64,000 nucleotides of DNA. Source: a virus. Its lineage: Duplodnaviria > Heunggongvirae > Uroviricota > Caudoviricetes. This document shows positions 7,834 through 53,760 of this stretch, in pieces. The translations under genes and the position numbers were made by a program. The notes beneath the pieces are model-generated. The model searched no databases and was not told the DNA's origin. It worked only from the letters and a program-made list of their open reading frames with translations. The stretch lies in IMG/VR virus record IMGVR_UViG_3300045049_000270; one strand, written 5' to 3'. The stretch's first letter is position 1. Each line of letters starts with the position of its first letter.

Positions 7834-7984
7834 TTGAATCGGAATCCTTTAGGGGTGGATTCTTGGCAGTATTTCTGATATTCACCAAAACCTTACCAGT
7901 TTCCACATCTCGAATGAGTAGATGATCAGTGGCTTGAACACCGGCTGGATCTACTTCTTCTATAATTTGTTTATCTACGTCCAT
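7820..7984 (-). CDS. Small hypothetical protein, 54 aa (below ORF-track cutoff)
   Basis: Manual translation MDVDKQIIEEVDPAGVQATDHLLIRDVETGKVLVNIRNTAKNPPLKDSDSNEQD; core resembles the N-terminus of the downstream ORF (GHVLVRDITDPTPEIIVD). Confidence 0.65.
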   Translation of the reverse strand: MDVDKQIIEEVDPAGVQATDHLLIRDVETGKVLVNIRNTAKNPPLKDSDSNEQD

Positions 7985-8006
7985 ATTTATGTGTTGAATT
8001 AAATGC
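7984..8006 (-). promoter_or_regulatory. Putative late promoter, GCATTTAATT-N6-ATAAATA
   Basis: Same bipartite motif and spacing at 22709-22731 and 29273-29295; core resembles the T4 late promoter TATAAATA. Confidence 0.6.
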
Positions 8007-8061
8007 CAATATAATTAGCTATTAGAACGAAATGTGGTCAGTTTATCAATATTCAAATGAC

Positions 8062-22685: not shown

Positions 22686-22708
22686 TATCTTTCATCCAAT
22701 TATGTACT

Positions 22709-22731
22709 TATTTATTCACGGAATTAAATGC
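22709..22731 (-). promoter_or_regulatory. Putative late promoter, GCATTTAATT-N6-ATAAATA
   Basis: Upstream of gp25; motif shared with two other loci. Confidence 0.65.
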
Positions 22732-22751
22732 TCAGATAATGGTGAAACTCA

Positions 22752-22903
22752 GAGTTCTCTCTGGGTTCTGTATCGTCCGTGAAGGCTTAGCCAGCGATTA
22801 CAACCTTCATGAATTTGAGGAGTTCTCTCTGGGTTTGACATAAACATCTGATAGAGCCAGTGATACTGGCGACATGTTTTGTAACCTCCATGAATTATTC
22901 GTG
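22752..22903 (-). repeat. Two copies of a bipartite arm-hairpin-arm element (minus orientation)
   Basis: On the + strand: GAGTTCTCTCTGGGTT at 22752 and 22820; AACCT(T/C)CATGAATT at 22802 and 22883. Self-complementary spacers lie between the arms. The same element occurs at 53478-53760. Confidence 0.85.
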
Positions 22904-22924
22904 AAGAATGATTTTTAATGGATG

Positions 22925-25009
22925 TTAAGTGGTAGTGGTACTATTAGCTTTAGCTGCGAATGCTTGTGCTCTTCCGCCTATTTTCTTTTGGAAGCCGTTG
23001 TAGACGTCTTGTACGGTTGAAGCCACTTTAAAGATATCTGGATTAGAAGTCACCACCCAGACTGGTACTACTGATCGTGCGTTTGCTGTTGGATCGGCTT
23101 TTAGGAATTTCAGAGCTCCTCCTGGTCCCAGGAAGTGAGCCATGTAGATATCGGTTGCTACGGGATCTCTGCCTAATCCTCTTTTGAGTATTGCTGTATT
23201 TTCTGCTGCGTAGAATGCGCCGAAGAGTGCTGATGCTTCTGGGTCTTTTTTCATTGCGAAGGTGATATTATATTGTGGGTATCGTTGCATCATAGACTTC
23301 CAGGTGCCGTCGGTGAATTGATATAAACCGTCAGCGGTTGATGCTGGTCGTGCTGAAGCATTGGGTCTGAATGCTGATTCAGTTGCACAGATAGCCATAA
23401 GAACGCCGATATCTACGCCTGTTATGCTTGCTGCTTTTTTTATAGCGTTCATTACTTCGATGGGGATATGGAAGCCGTTGATGCTTGTTTGTTGTCCGCT
23501 CAGGGATGGATTAGGTATTAGTTTGTCTTTACCATCGCCAGTAGTAACATTTGTTGTTGCTGGTTGATCGGTTGTACCATCACCAGGTTTGGTTTTAAAT
23601 GGTGATGGTCGATCAGTTGAACCATTTGGTTGGAATGGTACATTAGCGATTTGACCTTGTGGTGGTGTTGCTGCTTTGGATGATGGGTGACCGTTCCATG
23701 GTTCGTGAGTTGGCATTCTGCTAACGATGGTATTGATGCTTGTTGTGCCGTTAGTTTGTGTGGTTGGTACTATCTTTTCTGGTGCTGTTGCTTTATCAGC
23801 TTTATCGGGATCTGGGGCGGATCCACTATTATCTTGAATTTGTCCAGCTGAACGGATAATCGTACCTGCTTTTGTGGTATGATTTCCTCCTGCGCCAGTT
23901 TGCATATCGCCTGTAGCATACAAATTCACATTGCTTGATGCAGTGGCATCAAGATCAGATTGTGTTGATAGAGCCAGAGTTCCGGTTGATGTCAAAAGTA
24001 ATTGACCAGATGACAATCCACTCATATCGCGTGCTGATGCTAATTGTAGAGTACCACCGGAATTCAATGAAGTATTGCCTGTGCTCTGAGTTGCGATATT
24101 GCCACCTGAGGTAACGGTTACGTTACCACCGGCATCCAGATTGATATTTCGATCTGATCTTACGTTGAAGTCTTGTTCTGTGTGTAGACTAATAGAACCA
24201 CGTGAGTATATGTCAACGCCAGCGTCTGACACTTCAATCCATGAATTGCCTAATCCTGAGTTGATATAAACATAGCCATTAGTTTCGTGTACTAATACTT
24301 GGGTACCAGAACGAGTACGTAGACGGATGAACTCATTGTTTTCATTATCATCAACATATACTTGGTTTGCACGTGGAGTTAAAAATCCAAACACCTTTGA
24401 TGGTGCTTCACGACGTGCTGATGCTGATGTTGAACCTCGTTCGTAGTCATGTGTCAATCCCTGGGATTGTAGGCCCAAAGCTAGTGGATCGAATCGTGGG
24501 CGAATTGGGTTGGCCGTATTGATGTTTGGATCAGCTTTGTTATATTCAACGACTGGTGGCAAGCTGTTGTCTGCGTTATTCTCAAATGCGGTATCGATAG
24601 CCACACCAGGAACCATATGGTTCATATTTTGGGAATAGATACAAGCGAACCAGAAGCCTTTCGAAGCTTCACCATTAATGAAAGTAACCAGTACTTGATT
24701 TTCTACATCTGGTGGGACTGACCACCAGCCATAGCTTTGTTGGCTTTCACCATACAAATGTGAATTTGGTACACGATTAGCAGGGTCGCTTACGCCAGCG
24801 AATGGCGAAGCGTAGCTTACTACGAACCAATGTGCTTCATTTTTTGGATCGCCGCCCATTTCAGGAATGAAGACTTCAAGTCGACCCATACGTTGTTGAT
24901 CGACATTATTTTTTACAATACCAATGTAGATTTTCCCATCTACGATACGGCCGGCACCGGGTTCATTTTTATAGCCAGATGATGTGTGTTTAAAAGAGCC
25001 AAAAGACAT
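22925..25009 (-). CDS. gp5: Baseplate hub/spike protein, gp5-like, with C-terminal lytic transglycosylase (SLT) domain
   Basis: N-terminal OB fold (GIVKNNVDQQRMGRLEVFIP..YASPFAG..PPDVENQVLVTF); beta-helix repeats; PTHEPW; ATESAFRPNA..GLYQF..TW..YMAHFLGPGG. Confidence 0.85.
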   Translation of the reverse strand: MSFGSFKHTSSGYKNEPGAGRIVDGKIYIGIVKNNVDQQRMGRLEVFIPEMGGDPKNEAHWFVVSYASPFAGVSDPANRVPNSHLYGESQQSYGWWSVPPDVENQVLVTFINGEASKGFWFACIYSQNMNHMVPGVAIDTAFENNADNSLPPVVEYNKADPNINTANPIRPRFDPLALGLQSQGLTHDYERGSTSASARREAPSKVFGFLTPRANQVYVDDNENNEFIRLRTRSGTQVLVHETNGYVYINSGLGNSWIEVSDAGVDIYSRGSISLHTEQDFNVRSDRNINLDAGGNVTVTSGGNIATQSTGNTSLNSGGTLQLASARDMSGLSSGQLLLTSTGTLALSTQSDLDATASSNVNLYATGDMQTGAGGNHTTKAGTIIRSAGQIQDNSGSAPDPDKADKATAPEKIVPTTQTNGTTSINTIVSRMPTHEPWNGHPSSKAATPPQGQIANVPFQPNGSTDRPSPFKTKPGDGTTDQPATTNVTTGDGKDKLIPNPSLSGQQTSINGFHIPIEVMNAIKKAASITGVDIGVLMAICATESAFRPNASARPASTADGLYQFTDGTWKSMMQRYPQYNITFAMKKDPEASALFGAFYAAENTAILKRGLGRDPVATDIYMAHFLGPGGALKFLKADPTANARSVVPVWVVTSNPDIFKVASTVQDVYNGFQKKIGGRAQAFAAKANSTTTT

Positions 25010-25017
25010 ATATTACC

Positions 25018-27513
25018 TTATTGATTGACTTGGCCTGAAATTGTTTGATTAGCTGCAATTGAAGGTTGAGCTTGCGCGCTTGTATTAAAGTCAAGTGCTT
25101 TGAATGCATCAGTCAATGCCATACGTGCTGCGGAAATATCTTGTTTGAAAACTCCACCTGCAAAGGTATGAATAATCTGGGTCACACGGTAGATACCAGT
25201 GAAACTTTCGTTGTATTTGAATATTGGTGAACCATCGCTAGCTACGCCTAATGGATATTTGAATGCAATTAGGAACATGATATCACCATAGGTATAATCG
25301 ACTTGTTTTAATCTGGTCATATCTTTCGCCATATGGTCACGTGGAATAGAAATGTTCACCCATCGATTTACACAGCGTTCTAGATTACTAGCACCAAGCC
25401 AATATGGATCGCCGCGTATTGTTAATTGAATACTTTGTAGATCCGCAGTTACTGGACCGTAAATTTGATCCAGGATGGCACCATATATTGAGCGATCTCG
25501 AGTATAATATGCTGGTAATGGTCCTGCACCATAAGTTGTAGGACTTGGTGCTTGTTTTATTGAAACTGGCAATCTTGGAACCTGCGTATTGGATAACTGA
25601 TCTTCAGCATATAAAATATTAGAGCGACTTTGATCTGGTCTTTGTTTACTCAATAAGAAGTCCTGATTTGTTTGTGAAGCGGCACTTGATACTTGGGTTT
25701 TTAGTGAACCAATTTGATTACTTTTTCTAGTAATAGAATCTCGAATTTCTGATTCTTTTGCTTGTATCTCGGTTAGTTTCTGATCATTTGATCCATTGTT
25801 ATTGGTATTTTTCAGTTGTGATTCGGTGGCTTCGAGCTCAGTCAATTGTTGTTTCAATGAATTATTCTGCTCAACCAAATTCTGCATTTGTGCAGCCAGA
25901 GCATTATAATCCTGAGCATCTTGACGTGCTTTTGCCTGATCCGTCATAGCAACATTCGATCCTTGCAGACCATACAAATATGGTAAAGTTGCAGACCAGT
26001 TCAAGTTAAATTTGAAATCGAAAGATAAAACTTCAGTATTCAAACCAGTAAACAAATAATCATAACGCTTGACCATATACGCACTTTCTGTGAAGTTTGT
26101 TATTTTGGTTATTTGATTATTCGTTATGTTTGCATTCGTGATATCTGATTCCGAGATGATAGGTTTGGTTGTAAAATAGCTCAGAATGTTGAAAGTGACA
26201 GTCTTTGCGTATTGATTCACGGTAGCCAAATAATCACCAAAATCAACTGTAGGTTCATGACGGAATACAATACAGTTTCTTGTGGATTGATCAGGTTTGT
26301 CGATATCGCCATCAGTCATAACATCTTTTGCATACTTCTGTGCATCTGGGCAACTCACAAAAAGTTGTTCAATAACATCAGTGAGATTAGTACCCTTTGC
26401 AAATGCTGCTTTGTGTGGTGTGGCTTTATCAACTCCTTCTTCTGAACTTAATGGATTACTTCTTATATCACTGAAATCGATTTGGCTTGGTGATAGCGAC
26501 CATTTCGAAGGATCGATTGTTTTGCCGTTCATAATGAATGGAACCAAGTTAAATTGGTATTGTGTCACTTGGGAGCCATACATAATCAGATTATTACTAT
26601 TCAATGCTGATGCTAAGTCATTCAGCATTTGGCCTATAGTCGAACCTTTTGGTAGATATGGGAACGGTAATTTTAAATCTAATTCTTCATAAATGTCTTC
26701 TTCGGCAGGGATACAAGTAATTGTATATGTACTACCGGCAGCATTTGCTTCAACTGCAATATTTGAAATGGCTACTTGGTATAACCATGAGCCACTATTT
26801 GGAAAATCAACACAAGGATTTTTGTCGAATAAACCATTGTCGTCATAACCTTTGAATGTTACTTCAATAAAATAATAGAACTTGCTGAAGTTGCTGATGC
26901 CAAGTTCTGCTGCTGACTGCGCGATCATATCAAAAAAACTAACACCAAGTGGTTCCTTGATGATCAATGTGAATTCGGTAGCGGCAACTGATCTAGTTAC
27001 ATGGTTGGGTGCGGGAATTGTCTTTATTGTGAGACTGTCAACAGCTAGACCAGTAACACCAGATTGAGCAATTGTGGTTGACTTTCTATCCGCCACCGCT
27101 TGGCGAGCAGCCGTCCAAGATTTGGTAGTTGAAAACGAAATTGGTGTATCATCCGTAATGAAGAAACGAATGTTATATGTGGCTTGATTTACACTTGACA
27201 GAACATTAGGTTGCCAAGATGTATCGTTCGCATTGCTTAGAATCTGAGCCCCAACTGCTGCCGTTGTAGAATCTGACAAAGGCGTTGATGTAACCAAATT
27301 GCTTGTAAATGTTCCTGATTGTGCGGCAACATTATTGGCAATATTTGGGCTTATAGTCGTGAATAGCGTGCTATTACCCAATGTGGCCAATCCAGAAGTA
27401 TTTGCAGTATCAGTTACTACTGATTTTGTAGCAAAAGTGGGCGGTGCTAATTTGGAAACCTTCTGGTTTTGAGCCACATTACCAGTAGGTGTTGAATCTG
27501 TAAAATCAGCCAT
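25018..27513 (-). CDS. Probable baseplate hub protein (gp27-like)
   Basis: 831 aa between the gp53-like and gp5-like genes; LTIRGDPYWL and FTGIYRVTQIIHTF..GVFKQ C-terminal hub motifs. Confidence 0.6.
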   Translation of the reverse strand: MADFTDSTPTGNVAQNQKVSKLAPPTFATKSVVTDTANTSGLATLGNSTLFTTISPNIANNVAAQSGTFTSNLVTSTPLSDSTTAAVGAQILSNANDTSWQPNVLSSVNQATYNIRFFITDDTPISFSTTKSWTAARQAVADRKSTTIAQSGVTGLAVDSLTIKTIPAPNHVTRSVAATEFTLIIKEPLGVSFFDMIAQSAAELGISNFSKFYYFIEVTFKGYDDNGLFDKNPCVDFPNSGSWLYQVAISNIAVEANAAGSTYTITCIPAEEDIYEELDLKLPFPYLPKGSTIGQMLNDLASALNSNNLIMYGSQVTQYQFNLVPFIMNGKTIDPSKWSLSPSQIDFSDIRSNPLSSEEGVDKATPHKAAFAKGTNLTDVIEQLFVSCPDAQKYAKDVMTDGDIDKPDQSTRNCIVFRHEPTVDFGDYLATVNQYAKTVTFNILSYFTTKPIISESDITNANITNNQITKITNFTESAYMVKRYDYLFTGLNTEVLSFDFKFNLNWSATLPYLYGLQGSNVAMTDQAKARQDAQDYNALAAQMQNLVEQNNSLKQQLTELEATESQLKNTNNNGSNDQKLTEIQAKESEIRDSITRKSNQIGSLKTQVSSAASQTNQDFLLSKQRPDQSRSNILYAEDQLSNTQVPRLPVSIKQAPSPTTYGAGPLPAYYTRDRSIYGAILDQIYGPVTADLQSIQLTIRGDPYWLGASNLERCVNRWVNISIPRDHMAKDMTRLKQVDYTYGDIMFLIAFKYPLGVASDGSPIFKYNESFTGIYRVTQIIHTFAGGVFKQDISAARMALTDAFKALDFNTSAQAQPSIAANQTISGQVNQ

Positions 27514-27515
27514 AA

Positions 27516-27830
27516 TTAACCAAGAAGCGATTGAATGCGAGATTTTGTCGGAACATAGATTGACATACCGGCAGTCATATCCCAGATTGGATCACGAATA
27601 AGATCGACATTTCTAACCATAAACACCCACCAGTAAGCAGGAGTCTGATACAATTCATAACTCAAAGCATCTGGTCGATATTGATATCGAGGATCCAGTG
27701 ATGCAATAAATTGATCGGTAGAATCAGCTGGTATATTACGATATTGAATTGGTCCAATATACCAGCTTGTTTGTGGTGTTGTGAAATATGGTGATGATGC
27801 AGGGTAAACAATCTTAGTCATTAGATCCAA
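27516..27830 (-). CDS. gp53: Baseplate wedge protein, gp53-like (LysM-like)
   Basis: YRPDALSYELYQTPAYWWVF..N..I.DPIWD...G..IYVP. Confidence 0.8.
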   Translation of the reverse strand: MDLMTKIVYPASSPYFTTPQTSWYIGPIQYRNIPADSTDQFIASLDPRYQYRPDALSYELYQTPAYWWVFMVRNVDLIRDPIWDMTAGMSIYVPTKSRIQSLLG

Positions 27831-28729
27831 CCTTTCGAACGCATAAGTTCGCCCGTTCTGAATTTATCCAAATCAAAATCTTTTCTCATGGCGGTTGGCG
27901 TGTGTTGAACAACTAAGGAAACCGAGATTTGCATTAAGGATGGCAAACGCACATGGCCACCAGCAACTTGGATTGTCACATAGTCAACTGTGTTGTCTAA
28001 TGTATATGAATGATTCATCACAATAACTGGTAAATCATTAAACATGTAATCACCATAACCGCTTAAGAGTAATACTGGTGGTGGCATGCCGGCCAAGGAA
28101 GGATTTGATTGACCAAAATACATCTTACTCACTGTTCTCAAAAAATGTATTGAAGCGAGTAAATATTCTCCTTCGCGTTGATTTTGCAATGACCATTGAC
28201 CAGATATATCAATCTTCGTACTTGGTGTATTTTTATATGCGTAATAATCTTGATTACTATGTATAAAATGTAATGGTTCGTACTCTACCGCTTGATTCCA
28301 TGAAATCGTTGGTGTGTATGGAAAGAACATACCATTCGTTTCATACAGAATATTCAATATATTATTCGTACCGTTGGGCCCATAAACTTTCTGTTGTGCT
28401 GATACTTGTGGACGTATACGAACACGAAAATCAACAGAATTACCAATGCTGCCTGTTTGGTTAGCCGTAGATCCAAAAATACTATTCGAAATATTTGAGA
28501 TTTCGGAATTGATACCACCAGTAAGGCCAGTAAGAGTTGCTGGCAAACCACTAAGGCTGGACGTCAAGCCTGTAGTTAGGCTACTAGCGGTTTGAGTGAA
28601 ACTAGCTGGAATGCTAAGAGCATCACTGCTTATATTGGTGCCACCAGTAATGCTAAAGCCATTTAGAGAAGTAGTGGTACTACCGACTGAATTTGGCAAA
28701 GAAAAATTAAAATCACTCATTTTGGACAC
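27821..28729 (-). CDS. Probable baseplate-tail tube junction protein (gp48/gp54-like)
   Basis: FPYTPTI, HFLRTVSKM and PPPVLLLSGYG..MFNDLPV motifs; position in the baseplate block. Confidence 0.55.
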   Translation of the reverse strand: MSKMSDFNFSLPNSVGSTTTSLNGFSITGGTNISSDALSIPASFTQTASSLTTGLTSSLSGLPATLTGLTGGINSEISNISNSIFGSTANQTGSIGNSVDFRVRIRPQVSAQQKVYGPNGTNNILNILYETNGMFFPYTPTISWNQAVEYEPLHFIHSNQDYYAYKNTPSTKIDISGQWSLQNQREGEYLLASIHFLRTVSKMYFGQSNPSLAGMPPPVLLLSGYGDYMFNDLPVIVMNHSYTLDNTVDYVTIQVAGGHVRLPSLMQISVSLVVQHTPTAMRKDFDLDKFRTGELMRSKGWI

Positions 28730-29258: not shown

Positions 29259-29272
29259 GATTTTTACCCAAG

Positions 29273-29295
29273 TATTTATTCGTTAAATTAAATGC
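29273..29295 (-). promoter_or_regulatory. Putative late promoter, GCATTTAATT-N6-ATAAATA
   Basis: Heads the leftward baseplate gene block; motif shared with 7984 and 22709. Confidence 0.65.
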
Positions 29296-29311
29296 CACTA
29301 TAACTGGTTTA

Positions 29312-49417: not shown

Positions 49418-49647
49418 TTTGAATACTTCAAAATTGCAAGTAATGCATCATTTTCACTTTCGACGACAAAAACACCGTCTTTTTCCATTAGGAGAATTTC
49501 CAGATAGTTCAAATAATCGTAATTTACCCGCAAATTCGCTGCCGTTTCTAGTGCCTGCGTGAAAGTCAGCCGTTCAATCCATGTATTATATGAAGGATAG
49601 ATCCTTTCAGGATCAGGATATCGGACAACCCAAGGTTTCTTTTTCAT
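49414..49647 (-). CDS. Small paralogue-array protein (true start may be 49681, with a 1-nt frameshift)
   Basis: PWVVRYP..TFTQALETA..VESENDALLAILKYS. Confidence 0.7.
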   Translation of the reverse strand: MKKKPWVVRYPDPERIYPSYNTWIERLTFTQALETAANLRVNYDYLNYLEILLMEKDGVFVVESENDALLAILKYSK

Positions 49648-51068: not shown

Positions 51069-51338
51069 TTGGCAATAAAGTTTGCCATATCATCTATGTT
51101 TTCAAAACATTCAAATAAAATGAACGAAATCGTAGTCAACAACACTCAACAGCAAGTGACAGCGTCTTTTGATCTTCTGAATTTCATAATTAGTATGACA
51201 GAAGAAATTCTGTCAGATGTGGAATTCGCTTACCCCCGCAATGAATTTGATGAAGAACGAGCTAATACGATGCTACAAAAAATCCAAGGGGAAGCACGAG
51301 CGTTAAAGACCGTGGTCGAAAATATTAAGAAGTCATGA
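51069..51338 (+). CDS. Hypothetical helical protein
   Basis: ORF coupled to the next gene; start uncertain. Confidence 0.6.
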   Translation: MAIKFAISSMFSKHSNKMNEIVVNNTQQQVTASFDLLNFIISMTEEILSDVEFAYPRNEFDEERANTMLQKIQGEARALKTVVENIKKS

Positions 51339-51930: not shown

Positions 51931-52244
51931 TCGAAAAAGTATTGTTGGTTTATTACATCTGCTATGACCAAACGTGGGAATTGCTGTTTGATGCAGAAAT
52001 AAATGTTGATGATGGATTTGGATTTCTCTATACGGTTGGGACATCAGAACACAGTTTTGATTCGTTCAGTGTAGCAATCAAATCAGCATGGTTCTATAAA
52101 AATAAGATCGATGCAAGACTTGGTGATAAACGCAAATTGTTTGTGATCAAGAATCCACGTGATAGTCGATTCTTCAACGATGATATAAGTATGTCGATAG
52201 AAACTGATAATGATATGGTTGAAGCCATTCTGAGGTTTTCATGA
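51927..52244 (+). CDS. Small paralogue-array protein
   Basis: TWELLF..SFSVAIKSA..IETDNDMVEAILRFS. Confidence 0.75.
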   Translation: MIEKVLLVYYICYDQTWELLFDAEINVDDGFGFLYTVGTSEHSFDSFSVAIKSAWFYKNKIDARLGDKRKLFVIKNPRDSRFFNDDISMSIETDNDMVEAILRFS

Positions 52245-52564
52245 GTACCGAAATCATAGCCACCTTAGTTGGTCCAGTCCCCGAAGCTTGGGAATTACAA
52301 CCTTGGGTGGTTTACCCGAATAGAACAGTATTCGTCAATGATCAATTAAATCAAATTACCTTAGAACTATTCACATCTGGTAGATGGGATAAGGTCTTAA
52401 ATCTGTTCATCCCAGAAAAATTGGGCCAAAAGTTTGTAAAAACCAGGCAAGAAGCAATCACTTACGCATTAACATTGGGTAAACCAGTTGTAATTAAAAC
52501 GACAAATAGATTAGTCCTAATAAATGACGAATATGAAGCTATAGTAGCTCTATTAGATCAATAA
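52241..52564 (+). CDS. Small paralogue-array protein
   Basis: PWVVYP..TRQEAITYA..KPVVI..INDEYEAIVALL. Confidence 0.75.
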   Translation: MSTEIIATLVGPVPEAWELQPWVVYPNRTVFVNDQLNQITLELFTSGRWDKVLNLFIPEKLGQKFVKTRQEAITYALTLGKPVVIKTTNRLVLINDEYEAIVALLDQ

Positions 52565-52566
52565 AA

Positions 52567-52592
52567 TGATGGCACCTAATTAGGTGCCATCA
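52567..52592. terminator. Perfect 26-nt palindrome between convergent genes
   Basis: TGATGGCACCTAA|TTAGGTGCCATCA. Confidence 0.7.
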
Positions 52593-52609
52593 ACCAATAC
52601 AACCACCAA

Positions 52610-53398
52610 TTAACCTATCGAAAAGCCATATCCACCGGCACGTGAATCGATTAGATCCTTCAATTCCTTCTCCAATCTCTCCATCTCAGCCGCCGCTTCA
52701 GTCTTCAAAGCTTCACCATTCAGCTGAAATCCACCCTGCGGTCCAGCAATCTGGCTAAACATACCACGAGCTTCACCTAACATCTGTTTACACACCGCAG
52801 TTGTATAATCACGCAACCACGGACGTGCATATGTATCCGCAAATAATACTTCCTCAGGACGGGTATTCCATACCTGCATTAAGATAGTTTCAACAGCCAC
52901 AAACGCACGGTCAAATGTGATACGATGACTTACCGGCTCCCATTGAAACAATAACTCACGACCAAACATACGGCCAGCTTGACTCTGAAATTGCATCGCT
53001 AAGTCATAGGTGGCTAACGTACCAGATCCACCAGCACTCATACCACCAGGATTGTTGATCAAATACAAATTGTTCGAAAACGCAAGACTGAACGGATCAA
53101 TCTGGGGACCACCCTGGTTACCACCAATACCACGACGAAAAACCTTAGTAACCTCCTGAACCTCATTAGGCAAAGTATATTGAGTAGTATCCGGTTGAAG
53201 ATCCAAAAAGATATACGATTCCTCCAACGAATTATTCGATCTCTGGCGATAACGATCCAATGCATATTGCACAGCTAAATCATAATGCTCAGGGTCTAAA
53301 TCAATATCAATCATACCAGAACCAAGTCGTAATTGCACTTCCTTGATAATCCTCTGGCGTCCACTCATCTGATTGGAATCCATATACCAATCCCCCAT
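52610..53398 (-). CDS. gp13: Neck protein, gp13-like
   Basis: LRLGSGMIDIDLDPEH; WLRDYTTAVCKQMLGEARG.F..IAGPQGG..LNG; late-promoter core at 53413-53419. Confidence 0.88.
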   Translation of the reverse strand: MGDWYMDSNQMSGRQRIIKEVQLRLGSGMIDIDLDPEHYDLAVQYALDRYRQRSNNSLEESYIFLDLQPDTTQYTLPNEVQEVTKVFRRGIGGNQGGPQIDPFSLAFSNNLYLINNPGGMSAGGSGTLATYDLAMQFQSQAGRMFGRELLFQWEPVSHRITFDRAFVAVETILMQVWNTRPEEVLFADTYARPWLRDYTTAVCKQMLGEARGMFSQIAGPQGGFQLNGEALKTEAAAEMERLEKELKDLIDSRAGGYGFSIG

Positions 53399-53477
53399 AT
53401 AGTAATTACCAATATTTATCGCAATTCCTCATCAATTAACACTCCAGTAGCTTCCCAAAAACAACCCCCATTATCAC

Positions 53478-53760
53478 CACGAATATTCCATGGAGGTACC
53501 TAATACTCATCACGAAGTATTACCAAAACCCAGAGAGAAGTCGTCAAAATCCTCAACGAAGAACTCATGAAGGTTATCCATGACACCCTAATCATGAATA
53601 GAAACCCCGAGAGAACTACAAAAATTGGCTATACCACTACTATGGTGGTTAAACCAATAATGAAGAAACCACCAATAATATCAACGAATATTCATGGAGG
53701 TTGAGATCGTTTCAGGGTCTACGGACCCTTCATGGACGACATCAAACCCAGAGAGAAGTC
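53478..53760 (+). repeat. Three copies of the bipartite arm-hairpin-arm element
   Basis: Left arms (CGAAtAtTCATGrAGGT) at 53478, 53556 and 53684; right arms (AAACCCmGAGAGAAsT) at 53526, 53602 and 53744; hairpin spacers between them. Confidence 0.85.

Follow-up and report, generated by a model that had tools for sequence, protein, structure and literature searches.

The pattern closest to the one described here is that of GRINS, which, in the portion of the published account that we drew on (PMC8256042), are patches of ~1 kb where GC skew and TA skew go together and peak at the third codon position, and in which working genes are recoded. GRINS occur as near-identical repeats in bacterial PKS genes, that portion describes no boundary element for them, and their mechanism is open, although linked to gene conversion. 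A one-way start is known from the plasmid ColE1, whose nascent leading strand near the origin shows an excess of A>G (32:9), C>T (140:29) and A>T (18:7) changes over ~1.3 kb, according to the data taken from PMC3167613; this is a single plasmid origin primed by RNA II, and the footprint came from an engineered error-prone Pol I. With regard to T4, the parts of a review used here (PMC3016281) state that its origins share no local motif and need a promoter plus an unwinding element. Finally, as set out in the sections of PMC2839356 relied on here, the PeSL of phages RB49 and phi1 are dispersed intergenic stem-loops that have sigma-70 boxes and are oriented towards a downstream gene, and their copies exchange sequence.

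We examined a 64,000-nucleotide stretch of a Caudoviricetes genome (IMG/VR record IMGVR_UViG_3300045049_000270), hereafter called the window, together with a complete relative of 523,836 bp (G001), which was found by pattern scan and whose gp13 is 93% identical to that of the window. It should be underlined that the genome-wide tests were done on G001 and not on the window phage. The window holds the structural module of a T4-like jumbo phage, with PHROG matches to portal, major head protein, sheath, tube, gp55-like late sigma and gp46/47. The best isolate matches of its gp13 are Sinorhizobium phage Phosso (51%) and Atu_ph07 and PA5oct (47%), and the sequencing runs containing the phage are labelled soil or rhizosphere. 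Strains were compared using four runs, which were contigs of one sample; short, dense patches of strain differences lie in the small-ORF arrays of the window at 49,577–49,639, 51,151–51,238 and 52,181–52,248, consistent with a recombinational patchwork of co-occurring strains. A three-copy intergenic motif with AATAAATA stands before late genes on the minus strand (7,976–8,015, 22,701–22,740 and 29,265–29,304); it is likely a late promoter and presumably resembles that of T4. In G001 (L032–L058), tRNA/tmRNA calls number 60, among them one for tRNA-SeC (tca) and one for a permuted tmRNA; the genome also has FolE, PTPS, QueC and QueE-like genes, suggesting 7-deazaguanine chemistry, and genes for IF3 and a class II tRNA synthetase.

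Two loci in the window stand out in strand composition. The plus strand carries an A/C-rich (amino-skewed) tract, G/T-rich on the minus strand, whose best-scoring segment is 52,408–53,688 and whose cumulative skew reaches +270 between ~52,400 and 53,750; a mirror A/C-rich tract lies on the minus strand with its best-scoring segment at 22,814–23,885. As judged by the (A+C−G−T) skew over 1200 nt, the maximum of the window (+0.227, start 52,491) and its minimum (−0.235, start 22,703) coincide with these two loci, away from which the skew ranges from +0.117 to −0.150 (sd 0.036). Inside the first tract, the gp13-like head-tail adaptor (neck) gene (52,610–53,398, minus strand; PHROG 211) is synonymously recoded to G/T endings: A/C-ending synonymous codons make up 49/205 (0.24), versus 7622/15440 (0.49) in the other window genes (Fisher p=1.4e-13). 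A sequence-only reading of this DNA had quoted a run of G/T-ending codons in gp13 and noted proline codons without CCA. The run was located in the gene, and CCA accounts for 0 of its 10 proline codons versus 502 of 768 elsewhere in the window.

The same reading had made the plus strand A/C-rich for about 1.2 kb on the 5' side of the element. The tract is real but its edges lie elsewhere, as it starts ~170 nt after position 52,241, ~1.07 kb 5' of the first element unit, and continues through the element cluster. Only the 3' half of the small plus-strand ORF at 52,241–52,564 (no PHROG match) falls inside it, and the A/C lean ascribed to this gene is weak (51/80, p=0.013), being not significant in the first half (23/39) and present in the second (28/41, p=0.018). 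A perfect 11-bp hairpin inside the tract, at 52,567–52,592 between this ORF and the converging gp13, is likely a two-way terminator. At the second locus, the last ~320 codons of a gp5-like baseplate hub/transglycosylase gene (22,925–25,009, minus strand; assigned by PHROGs) are recoded to A/C endings (196/276 = 0.71, p=6e-13 for the last 320 codons). The two loci share the same geometry on strands that are opposite relative to transcription, just as had been proposed: the tract strand is the coding strand at 22.9 kb and the non-coding strand of gp13 at 53.5 kb.

The element itself was mapped by a position-weight scan. On the plus strand of the window, unit 1 (A-box, short stem, B-box) occupies 53,476–53,542, unit 2, with slightly degenerate boxes, 53,553–53,618, and unit 3, which has a long stem and at which the skew stops, 53,680–53,760; at the second locus the 5'-most unit lies at 22,820–22,905 and the second at 22,752–22,824, both on the minus strand. 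A unit (~80 nt) consists of the A-box (consensus TCATGGAGGTT) with a looser A/T-rich lead-in, a variable middle of 23–49 nt and the B-box AACCCAGRNAGAASTC. The window has five units at two loci and G001 has 22 at 15 loci, with none in the reversed-genome control; further copies occur in contigs of the window's phage, one of them with the flank of G001's 67-kb locus. Between or beside units in G001 (e.g. at 226,320) and in the G002 and G003 clusters there are also solo palindromes of the CCTCCATGGAGG type, which are akin to the A-box and may point to a DNA-binding protein that is dimeric.

In G001 all 15 loci carry a tract on the 5' side of the element. The synonymous z upstream is 2.5–9.7 (mean 5.5), the lowest value being reached by 4.4% of random windows, versus a mean of 0.2 downstream, and the total skew is +0.11 to +0.25 upstream with a downstream mean of 0.01. 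The direction of the tract genes follows the element strand at seven loci and opposes it at eight. When 17 loci were pooled, C exceeded G (0.16–0.35) and A exceeded T (0.03–0.25) from about −900 to 0; the skew was gone within 25 nt past the last unit and GC content was unchanged. The shift is synonymous, one-sided and independent of gene direction, and no deaminase-like context motif was found in the tracts. Seen from the skew rather than the element, 12 of the 17 total-skew peaks in G001 lie at correctly oriented elements; of the five peaks lacking one, two flank a switch at 516 kb (see below) and three are not or only weakly synonymous. The loci are also evenly distributed, most being separated by 28–53 kb, with 13 of 15 gaps measuring 28–69 kb and two less than 4 kb (post hoc P about 1e-5).

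Beyond G001, 79 loci obtained by two pattern scans comprised 29 true units, 11 weak ones and 39 without a unit, and the matches in bacterial genomes (8/8) as well as two more viral matches scored below a unit. The tract was present at all 28 strong-scoring loci in other contigs that had upstream sequence, corresponding to 14 distinct loci, many of them syntenic with those of G001; weak pattern matches were mostly without one. Scans found no element in L026, Phosso, Atu_ph07, PA5oct, XacN1 or CBB, and the four-fold A+C of gp13 is 0.17–0.24 in four element-bearing phages versus 0.38–0.58 in L026, Phosso, Atu_ph07 and PA5oct. The idea that element and tract form one oriented DNA-level module is therefore supported by the three checks put forward with it: both loci are the skew extremes of the window, with gp13 at the p-value given above; every G001 locus has its 5' A/C tract and none has one on the far side; and the bias is missing from the gp13 orthologues in four phages that have no element.

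Compared with the systems introduced above, the tracts resemble GRINS in size, correlated GC and TA skew, third-position emphasis and the recoding of working genes, and differ in being unrelated sequences of a single fixed polarity, anchored by a conserved hairpin element. GRINS repeats exceed 500 bp and 80% identity within the same cluster, whereas blastn gave no match among the 15 G001 and two window tracts, orthologous pairs excepted; both parts of the two-part GRINS measure were found in 9 of the 17 tracts, and the sign of the GC skew was identical in 17/17. Unlike T4 oriF, oriG and oriE, with which it has the machinery in common, the element is one repeated, evenly spaced motif family. 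The promoter that lies upstream of the primed region in T4 R-loop origins was not seen (no motif outside the boxes of 51 units, sigma-70-like sites below chance), nor was a T4-type unwinding element, rich in A+T, on the downstream side, tract GC being 0.41–0.47 as in the flanks. ColE1 shares with the element a one-way start and a footprint of the same sign and scale, and differs in its RNA II priming; no RNA II-like unit or promoter was found at the element. Rolling-circle dso, ssi/pas, the G4 origin and REP/BIME are comparable to the element in that they combine an imperfect hairpin with a conserved basal sequence and act on single-stranded or extruded DNA. The cognate Y1 HUH protein expected for REP/RAYT or a rolling-circle dso had no match in G001 (PF01797), nor had Prim-Pol; for other HUH families the coverage was that of the Pfam scans, limited to ORFs of at least 170 aa.

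That the element is a PeSL-like regulatory repeat beside a coincidental codon bias, or that the tract is the footprint of a reverse transcriptase, appears very improbable. Dispersed intergenic stem-loop cassettes do occur in T4-type phages, as reported in the consulted part of PMC2839356, and the element is likewise a multicopy intergenic stem-loop (22 units in G001, five in the window) with a covarying stem. However, sigma-70 −35/−10 boxes and a fixed gene orientation were not found at the element, gene direction being mixed, and the tracts are oriented at 15/15 loci. A retroelement or DGR is opposed by the lack of an RVT_1 (PF00078) match in G001 and by the nature of the change, which is not adenine-specific: A and C are both depleted on the G/T strand, unlike in adenine-only mutagenesis. 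The element belongs to none of the known families tested. A literature search that left most subscription papers outside its reach returned nothing that describes the element, its tract or jumbo-phage ends with amino/keto switches, GRINS being the closest pattern.

The units have a covarying stem. Across 51 distinct units GGTT and AACC are able to close a stem, and a second helix of at least 4 bp (Watson–Crick) in near-fixed register is present in 28 of them with 16 different arm sequences, compared with 4.6 units (maximum 12) in 2000 partner shuffles; since the units are akin, this count overstates their independence. Among 86 mismatches adjoining the second helix on the element strand, 32 are A-C and 9 are G-T, the former being G-T wobbles on the other strand. 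When seven related units were folded to a consensus, the G/T strand formed a 17-pair stem that includes C-G/U-G and A-U/G-U changes, and the element strand a local fold of 10 pairs. The wobble counts and the consensus folding thus make the G/T strand the likelier folded strand of the element, although the unpaired bases are A-rich on the element strand, which points the other way. Hairpins within the A-box or B-box and long-range pairing between the boxes were rejected, as covariation was no higher than the marginals, and likenesses to a k-turn, a hairpin ribozyme and a CsrA sponge clash with the variable columns. The middle of the 22.9-kb unit in the window matches the 166-kb and 226-kb units of G001 and not the orthologous 95.8-kb unit, and such middles, common to non-orthologous loci, indicate that units are copied between sites.

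A covarying stem, with changes on the G/T strand that allow G-U pairs, is also what would be expected if the element were a structured RNA serving a ~1-kb transcript as primer, promoter-proximal leader or terminator, with the skew stemming from transcription or an R-loop; T4 has RNA-primed origins, according to the portion of PMC3016281 used. We nevertheless judge this reading quite improbable. No conserved promoter-like motif lies more than ~25 nt from the boxes of the 51 units, sigma-70-like sites at the elements number 3 versus 6.7 expected, and no Rfam match was obtained at the elements of the window and of ten element loci, although a phage-specific promoter inside the boxes could still be present. 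Moreover, orientation is independent of the genes, the highly expressed capsid and sheath genes have no skew, and the T4 R-loop origins ori(uvsY) and ori(34) carry no significant footprint (z 1.5 and −0.5).

We consider it probable that the element is a site of strand cutting or priming, if a variant with resection (see below) is included. The more specific reading that we prefer, for which the chances seem about even, is that of an oriented, evenly spaced one-way priming or nick site from which ~1 kb of one strand would be displaced or remade; the word origin, used for the element in the sequence-only reading, is plausible. Stem folding on the G/T strand, provision of a 3'-OH, the ~1-kb extension and strand exposure as the source of the skew are all steps that we infer. 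The stem would fold on the G/T strand when this is opened or displaced, and a phage protein would bind the conserved base. A nick or a primer would then create a 3'-OH on the G/T-rich strand at the element, and from there the phage's T4-type polymerase with gp32 would proceed for ~1 kb on the A/C-rich template, displacing the G/T strand before a full fork is established. In every model the G/T-rich strand would have its 5' end at the site, with the A/C-rich strand as its template. Either repeated exposure or re-synthesis of the G/T strand (C>T, A>G, A>T) or the wobble-tolerant fixation of heteroduplexes would give rise to the GC and TA skew. Skew of the same sign results whether the displaced strand is deaminated or the polymerase makes wobble errors in the new one. 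The sign of the tracts matches that of the ColE1 Pol I nascent leading strand. The ~1-kb tract also fits the scale of helicase-less T4 synthesis, since leading-strand synthesis without helicase is limited to ~2.5 kb (PMC3016281, in the part consulted). The purpose would be to provide auxiliary replication or recombination starts every 30–50 kb along a half-megabase genome.

Divergence data bear on how the skew is fixed. For gp13, p/B is 0.53–0.71 versus 0.68–0.93 in the neighbouring gene, so that synonymous divergence is not raised and tends to be lower; for the gp5 tract it is 0.70–0.78 in 5/6 pairs versus 0.74–0.88. Strain differences number 26 in 5,570 nt inside the tracts versus 79 in ~23,250 nt outside, a 1.4-fold difference that is clustered and without transition excess, and an added mutation load in the tracts is not visible. 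Equal or lower divergence without a transition excess favours biased fixation, by heteroduplex conversion or weak selection, over added mutation.

The slightly reduced divergence could also reflect selection on an A/C-rich strand to stay unstructured at an origin or helicase-loading site, as the sequence-only reading had it, and most of the codon shift is captured by one A/C-versus-G/T term with log-odds of 0.77. The element strand of the tract does fold less than the downstream DNA (−69.6 versus −90.5 kcal per 900 nt). However, both strands lose structure, and do so by composition alone; native tracts fold more than their own synonymous shuffles in 14/17 cases (controls 17/17); the wobbles lean to folding of the G/T strand; and the same footprint is found at genome ends without the element. 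Selection for an unstructured A/C strand finds no support in the folding data, and we regard this version as improbable.

The footprint at genome ends emerged from a scan for two-sided switches (A/C left, G/T right) in six genomes. The strongest switch of G001, at 516.45 kb, lies in a 2-kb non-coding region (515.3–517.4 kb; L057:15340–17400) with A-tracts and ten same-strand TTCCTCTGAGG repeats, which is likely a packaging end or main origin. In XacN1 the two strongest switches, at 66,100 (z 10.1) and 318,750 (z 5.6), fall at the terminal-repeat boundaries given as 65,875 and 318,796 in the part of PMC5852040 used; the repeat boundary was confirmed by sequence, and the signal is stronger in the outer arms, which lie beyond the virion ends. 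The strongest switch of PA5oct is at record position 50, which would be its left genome end judging from the repeat description in the available portion of PMC7318152. The second PA5oct boundary and both CBB boundaries are weak, ranking only in the top 1.4–2.8%, and the best switch of Atu_ph07 is at 332.7 kb (z 4.4). Of the positive controls, T5 and SPO1 repeat boundaries showed no such switch, one SPO1 boundary being opposite in sign. With the XacN1 and PA5oct switches lying at repeat boundaries, the footprint goes with fixed DNA ends in this phage group and not in all phages. At such ends, synthesis is primed by 3' ends and the 5' strands undergo processing. Each element resembles one half of a two-sided end site of this kind, and in the preferred reading extension at the element would parallel that from an invading genome end at the terminal repeats.

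The ends also speak for a rival. The element could be the site of a programmed one-ended break or gap, at which the G/T strand is nicked and chewed back ~0.9 kb by gp46/47 or a 5'-3' exonuclease, so that the A/C 3' tail invades a sister genome; elements would then be internal mimics of genome ends and recombination hot spots, and the skew would come from biased conversion or weak selection on the tail. The divergence result keeps this reading in play, as slightly reduced divergence is expected from selection or biased conversion. The real ends of XacN1 and PA5oct carry the footprint, with the A/C-rich strand being the 3'-ended one, inner stems common to non-orthologous loci imply copying between sites, and GRINS tie a ~1-kb amino/keto skew to gene conversion in the account drawn on (PMC8256042). 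Three points weigh against it. The stronger outer arms of XacN1, beyond the virion ends, fit synthesis past the end better, and the wobble counts favour the G/T strand as the one that folds. By established chemistry, deamination of an exposed A/C strand gives a skew of the opposite sign. On balance we find resection unlikely.

With regard to the proteins that might act at the element, G001 has a full T4-type replication and recombination set, comprising polymerase B, gp32, UvsX, UvsW, primase, a DnaB-like helicase, a 5'-3' exonuclease, clamp loader and ligase. Among the ORFs scanned (Pfam on 259 of at least 170 aa and PHROGs on 89, out of ~790 called, with small ORFs mostly outside), no nickase, primase-polymerase or element-binding protein was identified. 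A candidate lead for the cognate nuclease, suggested by gene context, is a UvdE-family endonuclease (L033:7191–8222; G001 27,191–28,222) that adjoins the ligase and DNA polymerase genes. It is absent from five element-less phages and syntenic in relatives, with homologues in 117 phage records. Its gene holds a variant, sixteenth copy of the element, with a perfect B-box, an altered A-box and no clear tract, and this copy is unconserved in close orthologues (none in L301, partial in L302–L304). A bolder form of the preferred reading would make the elements a genome-wide lattice of internal 'pseudo-ends', with hairpins nicked by a phage nuclease (candidate UvdE) and recombination-type one-way synthesis every 30–50 kb, in which a strand-biased heteroduplex or D-loop step recodes ~1 kb to G/T without raising the mutation rate; this would also be the mechanism of GRINS. 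We put it forward tentatively, as possible though rather unlikely in full. Against our best reading stand the divergence, which is not raised, the T4 origins, which carry no significant footprint, the T5 and SPO1 ends, which show none, the weak signals at CBB and at the second PA5oct boundary, the outcome of the protein scans, in which no nickase, primase-polymerase or binding protein emerged, and the sixteenth copy, which has no clear tract.

We conclude that the element is real and undescribed, and that this oriented piece of DNA has a footprint strictly on one side. How a T4-like genome of 0.5 Mb is replicated within one infection is an open question, T4 origins having no common motif. If our reading is true, evenly spaced, sequence-defined one-way starts would constitute a new design of initiation with exact coordinates. 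The footprint also serves as a practical marker, as it located the mapped XacN1 and PA5oct ends with sequence as the only input, and it predicts ends that are unmapped. Furthermore, the tracts are a polarised, anchored example of GRINS-type amino/keto skew, which makes the origin of GRINS testable.
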